DNA of 9,056 bases from a virus (lineage: Duplodnaviria > Heunggongvirae > Uroviricota > Caudoviricetes), in IMG/VR virus record IMGVR_UViG_3300029473_000092; one strand, 5' to 3'. The stretch's first letter is position 1. Each line of letters opens with the position of its first letter. Of the stretch, positions 7,324-9,056 are shown in pieces. Under the pieces are notes generated by a model. It was not told where the DNA came from and made no database searches. It worked only from the letters and a program-made list of their open reading frames with translations. The translations under genes and the position numbers were made by a program.

Positions 7324-7667
7324 CAAACGAAATTAACTACCATGCACTGCTTGAGCGCGCACGGAATAAAGTGCAGAGCATTGAGTTCGCCTTAACACAG
7401 AGTGCATTCGCTGAGATTCGCGCTGAGCTTGAAGATGATTTAGAACTGGCACGGATTGCACTGGCATCTCTGGAAGTTGAGCCAGATGAACGCGCAGCCT
7501 ATGAATTATTTATGGAAAAGCGTTTCGGTAAAACAGTCGATCGTCGGAGAGCAAAAAACGGTGATAACGAGTACATGGCGTGGGATATGGCTCTCGGCTG
7601 GGTCGTCTGGAAACAACGCGCTGGCATGAGTCTTTCAACTGCACAACCACAGGAGGGTCAACAATGA
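7320..7667 (+). CDS. Hypothetical phage protein (115 aa), acidic and helical-looking
   Basis: ATG overlaps the upstream stop (ATGA at 7320-7323) and its stop overlaps the xis-like start (ATGA at 7664-7667). No recognisable motif. Confidence 0.6.
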   Translation: MTNEINYHALLERARNKVQSIEFALTQSAFAEIRAELEDDLELARIALASLEVEPDERAAYELFMEKRFGKTVDRRRAKNGDNEYMAWDMALGWVVWKQRAGMSLSTAQPQEGQQ

Positions 7668-7858
7668 ACAACTTAATGACAACAAAACAAGTCGCCGAAT
7701 TCTGTGGCGTTTCAATATCGACGGTGCTTCGCTGGAACAGTGTAAACCGGAGGACTGGTCAGAAATATCGGCCTGATTTTCCAGATCCTGATATTAAATC
7801 CTGCCCAAATAAATGGGCATCACGTAAGATATACAGGTTTGCAGGAGTAATTGAGTAA
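7664..7858 (+). CDS. Excisionase / AlpA-like winged-helix recombination directionality factor (Xis/TorI-like)
   Basis: 64 aa. ATG at 7664 with AGGAGGG 7-13 nt upstream. Motif TTKQVAEFCGVSISTVLRWN resembles the Xis/AlpA pattern (…S..TV.RW). Sits at the operon end next to a terminator, as TorI sits at the KplE1 end. The track's upstream start at 7580 is rejected. Confidence 0.7.
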   Translation: MNNLMTTKQVAEFCGVSISTVLRWNSVNRRTGQKYRPDFPDPDIKSCPNKWASRKIYRFAGVIE

Positions 7859-7916
7859 CAAACATTAGCTCAAATGTGAGCTGGCACATCTATGGCACAA
7901 GCCAAACAGATCTGAC

Positions 7917-7958
7917 TGTCTGCTCTGTATCAAGAGCAGACAAGCTATTTATTTTTTT
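7917..7958 (+). terminator. Intrinsic terminator downstream of the xis-like gene
   Basis: 10-bp perfect stem TGTCTGCTCT/AGAGCAGACA (7917-7926 with 7933-7942), 6-nt loop, then a T-rich run (TATTTATTTTTTT, 7946-7958). Confidence 0.6.
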
Positions 7959-8143
7959 ACATGAAAATGCGCGCTCTTTGGACGTTAGGGTTATTCTATC
8001 CAGAGCCAGCAGCACCTCTTAGCCAAGTACATAATTGCAGGCACAATCCGGCATCGATGTGCAGCTCCGGTCGCTGAACTGCTGGAAAACCCTTCCGTTC
8101 ATAAGCCAGTCTCGATACGTGGCAACAGTATCATTGATACAAT

Positions 8144-8950
8144 TTATTTTAATTTTCCCGTACCTCGAAGAAGTGATAGGTATTGATCAGTGGCAAGTAA
8201 TGGTAGATTATTCTCTTGGCTAGAGTCGATATCTCTAATTAAAATTGTACGGTTTTTTATGCTGAACTTGTATTTAGCCTCCAGCATTGCCCAAAACATT
8301 CTTTTATTTAATCTTGATAGTCTTATAAAATTTACAAGACCTTCAAGGCTCATAACTAAAACTTTCGCCCCTTTTGACTCTTTAAGGTTGCTAATTTCGT
8401 TATAAATCTTTTCAGCACCTTCTTTCTCTAAAACAAGATCTGAAATTATCACTAAATGATAAATACCCTTTCTGCGCTTTATTAAGCATTCCCTCCCGTC
8501 ATAATTAATAACCACATCATTATTTAGAATTGGGATAACGCCTTTAACCTGATCGATCCCTTGCAATGCTTTTTTCTTATACATGCTACAAAGCTTTTCA
8601 TGAGATTTCAAACCCATTTCAATCAAAGATGATGCTTTAGACTGTATAGATAATACATAGTCATTTTCTACAATAAGAATATCAACTAGTTCTCTTTTTT
8701 TATTACCCTCAATAATATCTGGAGAAAAAAACACTTCCTCCGGTGAAAAGACCTGCCGCAAAGCATGGTATATAAGAGCTTCCTGCTCATATCCCTCAGA
8801 GCCGTTTTCACTGACGCTAAATTCATATGTTAATACGGTATCGTTTGGTTCATGAACACTTGCTAGGTAAGATTTTTTATCGATTACACTTAGTGGCAGA
8901 CTAATTATTTTCTCGTTACCAGTCAAAGCATTGTTGCAGAATTCATCCAT
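8144..8950 (-). CDS. AT-rich orphan ORF, 268 aa, unknown function (candidate horizontally acquired defence, abortive-infection or toxin cargo)
   Basis: Clean ORF with ATG at 8950, AGGGAAGG 8-15 nt upstream and an in-frame stop 36 nt upstream. GC content is visibly far lower than the roughly 50% of flanking sequence, and the drop is confined to the ORF. Lys/Ile/Asn/Glu-rich. Contains PD…D…E…QSK (SPDIIEGNKKRELVDILIVENDYVLSIQSK) and RRKGIYH segments, weakly reminiscent of PD-(D/E)xK nuclease and HEPN motifs respectively; neither is reliable by eye. Confidence 0.65.
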   Translation of the reverse strand: MDEFCNNALTGNEKIISLPLSVIDKKSYLASVHEPNDTVLTYEFSVSENGSEGYEQEALIYHALRQVFSPEEVFFSPDIIEGNKKRELVDILIVENDYVLSIQSKASSLIEMGLKSHEKLCSMYKKKALQGIDQVKGVIPILNNDVVINYDGRECLIKRRKGIYHLVIISDLVLEKEGAEKIYNEISNLKESKGAKVLVMSLEGLVNFIRLSRLNKRMFWAMLEAKYKFSIKNRTILIRDIDSSQENNLPLLATDQYLSLLRGTGKLK

Positions 8951-9056
8951 TGCTTCATTACCTTCCCTGGTGATGCTGCCAACTTACTGATTTAGTGTAT
9001 GATGGTGTTTTTGAGGTGCTCCAGTGGCTTCTGTTTCTATCAGCTGTCCCTCCTGT

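Follow-up and report, generated by a model that had tools for sequence, protein, structure and literature searches.

A 9,056-nt stretch of viral DNA (IMG/VR record IMGVR_UViG_3300029473_000092, Caudoviricetes), called the window below, was analysed with a focus on a 268-codon open reading frame (ORF) near its right end, ORF 8144-8950. The window is the early part of a lambdoid prophage that resembles CPS-53, and includes genes for an HTH_36 replication-type protein, Rha/Ash, YmfL, Cro-like and CI-like (S24) repressors, YfdP, YfdQ, YfdR and a 3'-phosphoadenosine 5'-phosphosulfate (PAPS)-reductase-like protein. The ORF lies on the minus strand, convergent with the plus-strand early operon, just as a first-pass annotation made from the sequence alone had described it. 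The same annotation had reported a sharply lower GC content limited to this gene, and a windowed GC profile bore this out. The ORF had a GC content of 34.1% (29.4% at third codon positions), compared with a mean of 47.3% for all other 807-nt stretches of the window (standard deviation 2.4%, minimum 40.8%). This places it ~5.5 standard deviations below the mean. The other window genes ranged from 42 to 51%.

ORF 8144-8950 is the truncated tail of a larger gene, interrupted by the insertion sequence IS1 between codons 143 and 144 (F143 and R144; window 8968|8969). In an alignment with the uninterrupted locus of E. coli APEC E16002 (L001), the window was identical through position 8968. After this position the window reads GGTGATGCTGCCAACTTACTGA..., where L001 has 429 further coding bases. 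A megablast search of positions 7600-9056 against complete E. coli genomes retrieved 75 genomes at 99.9-100% identity, all ending at query base 1369, which is window position 8968. The left inverted repeat of IS1 begins at 8969 (GGTGATGCTGCC...). The element was recognized as IS1 by its terminal inverted repeat GGTGATGCTGCCAACTTACTGAT, the insA leader and the identity to annotated IS1 copies: the last 88 bases of the window had thousands of matches in E. coli genomes, at sites labelled as IS1A/IS1B transposase elements, and positions 8960-9056 matched more than 5000 plasmid records at 95-99% identity, within features that carry the annotation IS1A/IS1B family transposase. As the window stops within IS1, the target-site duplication and the right end of the element lie outside the view.

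The parent gene is 1254 nt long and encodes 417 aa, so that the ORF makes up its 3' 64%. The ATG of the ORF is the internal Met150 of the parent protein. Reading upstream from it, an in-frame TAA lies six codons into IS1, with no start codon in between. The only family match of the window protein was PHROG 30399, with residues 1-268 aligned to profile positions 150-417 of 417 (E 1.7e-184), that is, as an N-terminally truncated member and not over the full length. The first-pass annotation had taken the ORF for a complete gene with its own Shine-Dalgarno (SD) sequence. Neither claim survived the comparison with the intact loci and the profile, and the supposed SD sequence, AGGGAAGG (8961-8968), consists of codons R144-E145-G146 of the parent gene and is present in all intact alleles. 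The promoter, the ribosome-binding site, the start codon and the conserved N-terminal domain are lost from the window copy. What remains encodes half of a linker helix, a beta-hairpin and an entire FokI/BspD6I-like, NERD-related PD-(D/E)xK nuclease domain. The remnant and L001 were identical at 885 of 885 nt; this points to a recent IS1 insertion and not to maintenance of the fragment.

The same IS1 junction was present in two further contigs (L011 and L012), both from metagenome assemblies and both likewise ending inside IS1. It was not found in any complete E. coli genome. Two specific patterns for the far-side junction gave no match in viral contigs. The pattern TCATTACC-N6-AAATCC occurs within the intact gene itself, and a metagenome scan with it returned three intact copies. 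The gene sequence just before the insertion point (TCATTACC-TTCCCT; window 8960-8968) contains the octamer TCATTACC, which also forms the outermost bases of the right inverted repeat of IS1. The features of the locus are listed in Table 1.

Table 1 Features at and around ORF 8144-8950. Residues are given in fragment numbering, followed by the numbering of the 417-aa parent protein.
Feature	Position	Strand	Remarks
Remnant ORF	8144-8950	minus	268 codons, equal to codons 150-417 plus stop of the 417-codon parent gene
Catalytic core	8549-8782	minus	Invariant in 69 diverse family members except Q103 (E in 60 of 69)
E57 = E206	8780-8782		
P77 = P226			
E87 = E236			
D90 = D239	8681-8683		
Q103 = Q252	8642-8644		
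K105 = K254	8636-8638		
Q134 = Q283	8549-8551		
Parent codons 144-149	8951-8968	minus	R-E-G-N-E-A; kept without a start codon; SD-like AGGGAAGG inside
IS1 left end	8969-9056	plus	Inverted repeat GGTGATGCTGCCAACTTACTGAT, then insA promoter/leader reading away from the ORF; continues past the window end
64-aa HTH protein	7664-7858	plus	Final gene of the early operon, in excisionase position
Terminator-like hairpin	7917-7942	plus	10-bp stem, T-rich tail; closes the early operon in the convergent gap

Among 5426 complete E. coli genomes, 75 (1.4%) carried the parent gene, each as one uninterrupted 1254-nt copy of at least 99% identity. The copies were always chromosomal, almost always annotated as a single coding sequence, and named only 'hypothetical protein'. 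In the intact loci, the gene is flanked by the small HTH/xis-like gene on one side and by a tyrosine integrase gene on the other. It shares the strand of the integrase gene and follows it at a distance of 170 nt, and the prophage adjoins yjjG-rimI-holD. The integrase thus stands between the gene and the host flank, and the location at the prophage terminus given by the first-pass annotation has to be corrected. Its description of the neighbourhood, an xis-like gene followed by a terminator, held in part: the hairpin is present and the HTH gene occupies the excisionase position, but the label itself depends on matches to HTH_17/MerR only, which were sub-threshold at ~20 bits. The idea of compositionally foreign cargo applies to the parent gene as a whole, which has a GC content of 33.9% across 1254 nt (33.1% in the N-terminal part missing from the window) in a prophage of 45-50%, with the integrase gene at 45%.

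Other disrupted alleles were found besides the IS1 allele. In L010 (4676-5916), a 1-nt deletion shortens an A7 run to A6 at codons 129-130 and causes a frameshift, and in L013 (1669-2910), C128 is changed to a stop codon (TGT to TGA). Both lead to the same 268-aa gene call. The copy of Kluyvera sichuanensis (L014 8001-9243) has a C-terminal frameshift near codon 375, bringing the lesions to four in total. We attribute the confinement of the E. coli lesions to codons 128-144 to ascertainment, because the 268-aa call arises only if the lesion lies beyond M114, the last in-frame Met upstream, and the search was made by that product. In its form, the window case resembles other IS-disrupted accessory genes of defective E. 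coli prophages, in that the IS1 repeat directly joins the reading frame between two codons, the upstream part is out of view and the downstream ORF is still called. There is nothing unusual in this; the sole notable point is that the same gene was otherwise inactivated too.

The protein is not an orphan, although the first-pass annotation had proposed it as one, and the failure to place it in a family was a limit of reading by eye. Apart from PHROG 30399, a search of 5.8 billion sequences yielded 13 close clusters at 54-99% identity from E. coli, Serratia, Morganella and Yersinia, all 411-418 aa long and all unnamed. An exhaustive profile search of 1.84 billion representatives added 225 distant clusters, most of them ~400 aa long, and the family reaches the edge of Pfam NERD. 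The distant matches mostly spanned positions 4 to ~390, and the two-domain architecture is therefore the conserved unit. One related-locus search with close alignment gave only the Kluyvera copy, and a profile search of a word-indexed database added only one protein. Plasmid copies were found in Salmonella, Klebsiella and Yersinia, and none in deposited phage genomes. Both domains, including the one lost from the window, are under purifying selection: a comparison of the E. coli gene with that of Serratia fonticola gave a ratio of nonsynonymous to synonymous substitution rates (dN/dS) of 0.275 for the whole gene, with practically equal values in the N-terminal (0.285) and C-terminal (0.278) parts.

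The parent protein consists of an N-terminal alpha/beta domain of ~135 residues, a linker helix, a beta-hairpin and the C-terminal PD-(D/E)xK nuclease domain. Searches of Pfam, NCBIfam, PADLOC and PDB sequences returned nothing for the fragment or the full-length protein, and profiles of the N-terminal domain matched neither PDB sequences nor Pfam. Two candidates for this domain were rejected. A degenerate copy of the nuclease domain was given a probability of 1.4% by hhalign. P0054, a protein of 2283 aa, matched the N-domain profile 22 times. It is a type IX secretion system (T9SS) surface protein built from near-identical tandem repeats, and its score is an artefact that arises from adding up weak matches.

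The nuclease domain has an alpha-beta-beta-beta-alpha-beta core fold that could be superposed on solved PD-(D/E)xK members of the FokI/BspD6I type. The best structural matches were the restriction enzymes BspD6I, FokI, HindIII, BstEII and NgoMIV; AspBHI and McrC were among the weaker ones, via the nuclease domain. Conservation was assessed in 69 diverse members with 16-30% identity to the E. coli protein. Eight residues were invariant (K34, G202, E206, P226, E236, D239, K254 and Q283 of the parent protein), and the consensus of the core is RELTDIL...LIESKA...QLxGAxK. The first-pass annotation had noticed a PD…D…E…QxK-like segment. This was roughly right: the conserved signature, in fragment numbering, is E57, E87, D90, Q103-x-K105 and Q134, and the suspicion of a nuclease was right in kind for the parent protein. 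The HEPN-like Rx4-5H segment (RRKGIYH, residues 308-314 of the parent) did not hold: it varies in the close clade, and its H is G, C or A in the wider family. HEPN was rejected as a candidate for want of a conserved Rx4-6H motif and because the fold is that of PD-(D/E)xK nucleases rather than the helical one of HEPN. Weak matches to Pfam NERD (PF08378) at E <0.01 were found for 20 of the 69 distant members, covering model positions 2-109 of 111 over the nuclease core. Ten inspected matches scored 14-18 bits, below the gathering threshold of 22.1 bits; the best E-value was 8.8e-6, and at least one member may pass the threshold. The fragment and the 417-aa parent had no NERD match even at E up to 10.

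Homologs were found in the type of site where mobile elements carry accessory or defence genes. The first-pass annotation had assigned the ORF to such a site, and this was borne out for the parent gene and its homologs, each of them solitary. In a P2-like prophage (L003 8001-10667), a gap in the tail-gene cluster, flanked by the baseplate V/spike and the tail S/R genes, holds the homolog together with a 438-aa DUF6602 gene. The Morganella homolog is the final gene after exc-int, at the end of a lambdoid prophage next to icd. The neighbours on a Yersinia pseudotuberculosis plasmid island are Mrr, PLD and HEPN-like genes and a Tn3. The Serratia fonticola copy is flanked by IS elements and lies near Fic/Phd, and in S. 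marcescens a short inserted segment between housekeeping operons contains the gene. No called neighbour had a methyltransferase Pfam match in the flanks of the E. coli, P2-like, Morganella, Yersinia and Serratia loci. A conserved partner gene was sought and rejected: the neighbours in L003, L004 and L017 (432-452 aa) showed no relationship to one another (BLASTP E >0.6). The solitary distribution is as would be expected of a stand-alone accessory or defence gene, although this is no more than guilt by association.

Three of these neighbourhoods deserve a remark of their own. The tail-cluster gap of L003, with its two unannotated genes, may be a cargo or defence slot. The neighbours without Pfam match in Morganella (L004 6401-7759, 452 aa) and S. 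marcescens (L017 9603-10901, 432 aa) show no relationship to one another or to DUF6602, and could represent additional uncharacterised cargo genes.

Taken together, we read ORF 8144-8950 as the IS1-truncated remnant of a gene for a two-domain, FokI-like nuclease, with the window copy dead and, as a weaker inference, the intact protein a stand-alone nuclease (probability of about 0.8). Mobile elements would employ the intact protein to counter rival phages or other DNA entering the cell. Recognition of the target or trigger, or gating, would fall to the N-terminal domain, and the FokI-like domain would cut nucleic acid in a Mg2+-dependent manner via D239 and K254, with E206/E236/Q252 and Q283. 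Defence is a plausible candidate role for the intact gene. That the parent family is an undescribed single-protein system against phages or mobile elements, in which a new N-terminal sensor or targeting domain, for which no relatives by sequence or fold were found, controls a FokI-like cleavage domain, and whose gene moves by itself among cargo slots of prophages and plasmids, is a tentative proposal that we hold to be possible but rather doubtful.

Several points weigh against this interpretation. No database links the family to defence, and neither PADLOC v2 nor NCBIfam has a model for it. With PADLOC-DB v2.0.0, a check suggested by the first-pass annotation, the fragment and the full-length protein matched 0 families, and among the 69 members there were only single matches at chance level (E 0.003-0.006). 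The family was not mentioned in the papers and supplements searched for its RefSeq accessions and PHROG identifier, including the DefensePredictor supplements, and the P2/P4 hotspot paper makes no mention of NERD. The role of the N-terminal domain as a sensor or targeting module is something we infer from the architecture only. The enterobacterial clade has Q at the glutamate of ExK (E in 60 of 69 members), S at an N-domain glutamate (E in 63 of 69) and S at a common aspartate (D in 53 of 69), and its catalytic competence is not assured. The clade may nevertheless be active, as restriction enzymes such as Cfr10I and NgoMIV have SxK without the middle acid and recruit an acid from elsewhere. 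As to the dead window copy, it retains every residue of the nuclease domain and the SD-like sequence 10 nt before Met150, and it may be reached by read-through, or by a hybrid promoter arising in the part of IS1 beyond the window.

As its promoter, native start and N-terminal domain are all missing, the remnant is most likely a non-functional pseudogene. A consensus scan found no promoter-like site on the minus strand in 8951-9056, and the only one nearby was IS1's own inward-facing site, on the opposite strand. Isolated FokI-type cleavage domains have little activity without a DNA-binding partner, and the cleavage domain of FokI and the small subunit of R.BspD6I are both poorly targeted or inactive when isolated. 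By analogy, a FokI-type module deprived of its N-terminal domain would be the same. The first-pass annotation had instead favoured an intact, self-sufficient 268-aa defence or toxin protein with its own SD sequence that had arrived as one unit next to the prophage end. In its favour, the reading frame is open and rich in AT, it has the full nuclease signature, and gene finders call the 268-aa product on at least 13 contigs. Nevertheless, this proposal is refuted as stated and we leave it next to no probability. The close homologs are all longer by far, the distant relatives have ~400 aa and match across both domains, and the ORF starts 18 nt from the end of IS1, where 75 genomes continue with coding sequence. 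The frameshift and the nonsense lesion of the full-length gene account for the other 268-aa calls. In the close clade, the position of Met150 is taken by either M or L, so that there is no conserved internal start at this point, and neither a family member of naturally ~268 aa nor an ancestral 268-aa ORF with its own conserved promoter was found. An expression of the remnant from Met150 by IS1 read-out or a hybrid promoter, which would release a free FokI-like cleavage domain with a toxic or new function, also has to be weighed. IS1 insertions can create hybrid promoters. All catalytic residues are kept, as is AGGGAAGG 10 nt upstream of Met150. The sequence has not decayed, and three independent lesions (IS1, the A7-to-A6 frameshift and C128*) all left the ORF intact. 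However, the visible IS1 end has no promoter-like site facing the ORF, the SD-like bases are ordinary codons of all intact alleles, the zero divergence fits a recent insertion, and the lesion clustering is expected from ascertainment. We therefore hold expression of the remnant to be quite improbable, and prefer the pseudogene.

For the parent gene, the structural matches to restriction enzymes would also fit a restriction-modification (R-M) endonuclease, Type II or IIS-like, with the N6-adenine methyltransferase of the prophage as its protecting partner. The same prophage does encode a Dam-type methyltransferase (L001 294-947; L010 14514-15167). This gene, however, lies ~9 kb away, in a separate and oppositely oriented operon among regulatory and replication-type genes, and the five other homolog contexts had no called methyltransferase-Pfam neighbour in the fetched flanks. 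The N-terminal domain of ~135 aa is also small for a sequence-specific recognition module and matches none. As a cognate methyltransferase beside the endonuclease was not encountered in any context, the pairing was rejected, and an R-M function appears very unlikely. A modification-dependent, Type IV-like restriction enzyme, in which the N-terminal domain would read modified bases, is a sub-case of the defence idea. It would account for a solitary gene without a methyltransferase and for the combination of a small, reader-sized domain with a non-specific cleavage domain, and AspBHI and McrC are among the weaker fold matches. On the other hand, neither sequence nor fold pointed to an SRA-, EVE-, PUA- or YTH-like N-terminal domain, and this speculation from the architecture is, in our opinion, unlikely to be right.

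The closest known cleavage domains, those of FokI, the R.BspD6I small subunit and the N.BspD6I nickase, share only 11-13% identity with the nuclease domain. The similarity to these Type IIS enzymes extends over only ~150-180 residues, so that the ~135-aa N-terminal module is unrelated to their recognition domains. The parent gene has no adjacent methyltransferase, and the enterobacterial clade has QxK instead of D/ExK. Defence effectors that combine a sensor with a PD-(D/E)xK nuclease include Can2/Card1, Cdn1, NucC, HamA, Shedu SduA and Hna. In the tests made here, the N-terminal domain of the parent protein was not CARF- or SAVED-like, and the parent gene has neither a conserved signal-generating partner nearby nor a PADLOC model. 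ZwsA is a stand-alone defence protein against RNA phages with a NERD domain (bioRxiv 10.64898/2026.04.06.716636). Its E...D...ExK catalytic pattern, mutated in that work, is the same as in the parent family, and both are single genes tied to mobile elements or defence islands. ZwsA, however, is a much larger VHS-DUF647-NERD-S4 protein that cuts RNA and has no architecture in common with the parent protein, and is therefore an analogy and not a relative.

The value of the window lies in a correction, as an apparent orphan defence gene is a pseudogene made by IS1, and cloning 8144-8950 would test a fragment. The useful product is the parent family, with proteins of ~400 aa that join a FokI-type nuclease to an unclassified N-terminal domain, lacking annotation or a PADLOC model. 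Its members occur in E. coli, Serratia, Morganella, Yersinia, Salmonella, Klebsiella and Kluyvera, in cargo positions of prophages and plasmids. An intact allele, such as WP_015674827 of E. coli CE10 or WP_072109023 of APEC E16002, would be a reasonable and cheap candidate for a phage-defence screen, and the FokI-like module with its compact partner domain could be of interest to enzymologists. Multiple independent inactivations might hint at a cost of carriage, within a biased sampling; if the 417-aa family is a defence system, the window would record one of them, and the cost would be one of fitness. Current understanding is not overturned by these findings.

Some further observations concern the rest of the window. 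A C4 antisense RNA (1677-1764, minus strand; Rfam 83.6 bits) and an isrK Hfq-binding small RNA (1789-1865, minus strand; Rfam 67 bits) were both detected above the gathering score. Both lie inside a 383-codon ORF (1074-2225) named 'Rha family phage regulatory protein' in RefSeq. The 5' half of this ORF is probably not coding, but an isrK/C4-type regulatory RNA leader before an antirepressor-like gene. Comparable RNA leaders are those of c4-ant in P1 and isrK-anrP in Gifsy-1. Between the CI-like repressor gene and yfdP, ~720 bases (3817-4538) have no annotated gene in the RefSeq relatives and hold only unconvincing ORFs, with a dip in GC content to ~38% at 3600-3900. The reading frame of YfdR, a 5'-deoxynucleotidase (5892-6467), extends ~12 nt beyond its end in L001, and its last 22 nt are shared with the PAPS-reductase-like gene. 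YfdR has 182 aa in the window, L011 and L012 and 178 aa in L001 and L010, and is annotated as frameshifted in CE10. Judged from these sequences, the 3' end of yfdR varies among the relatives.

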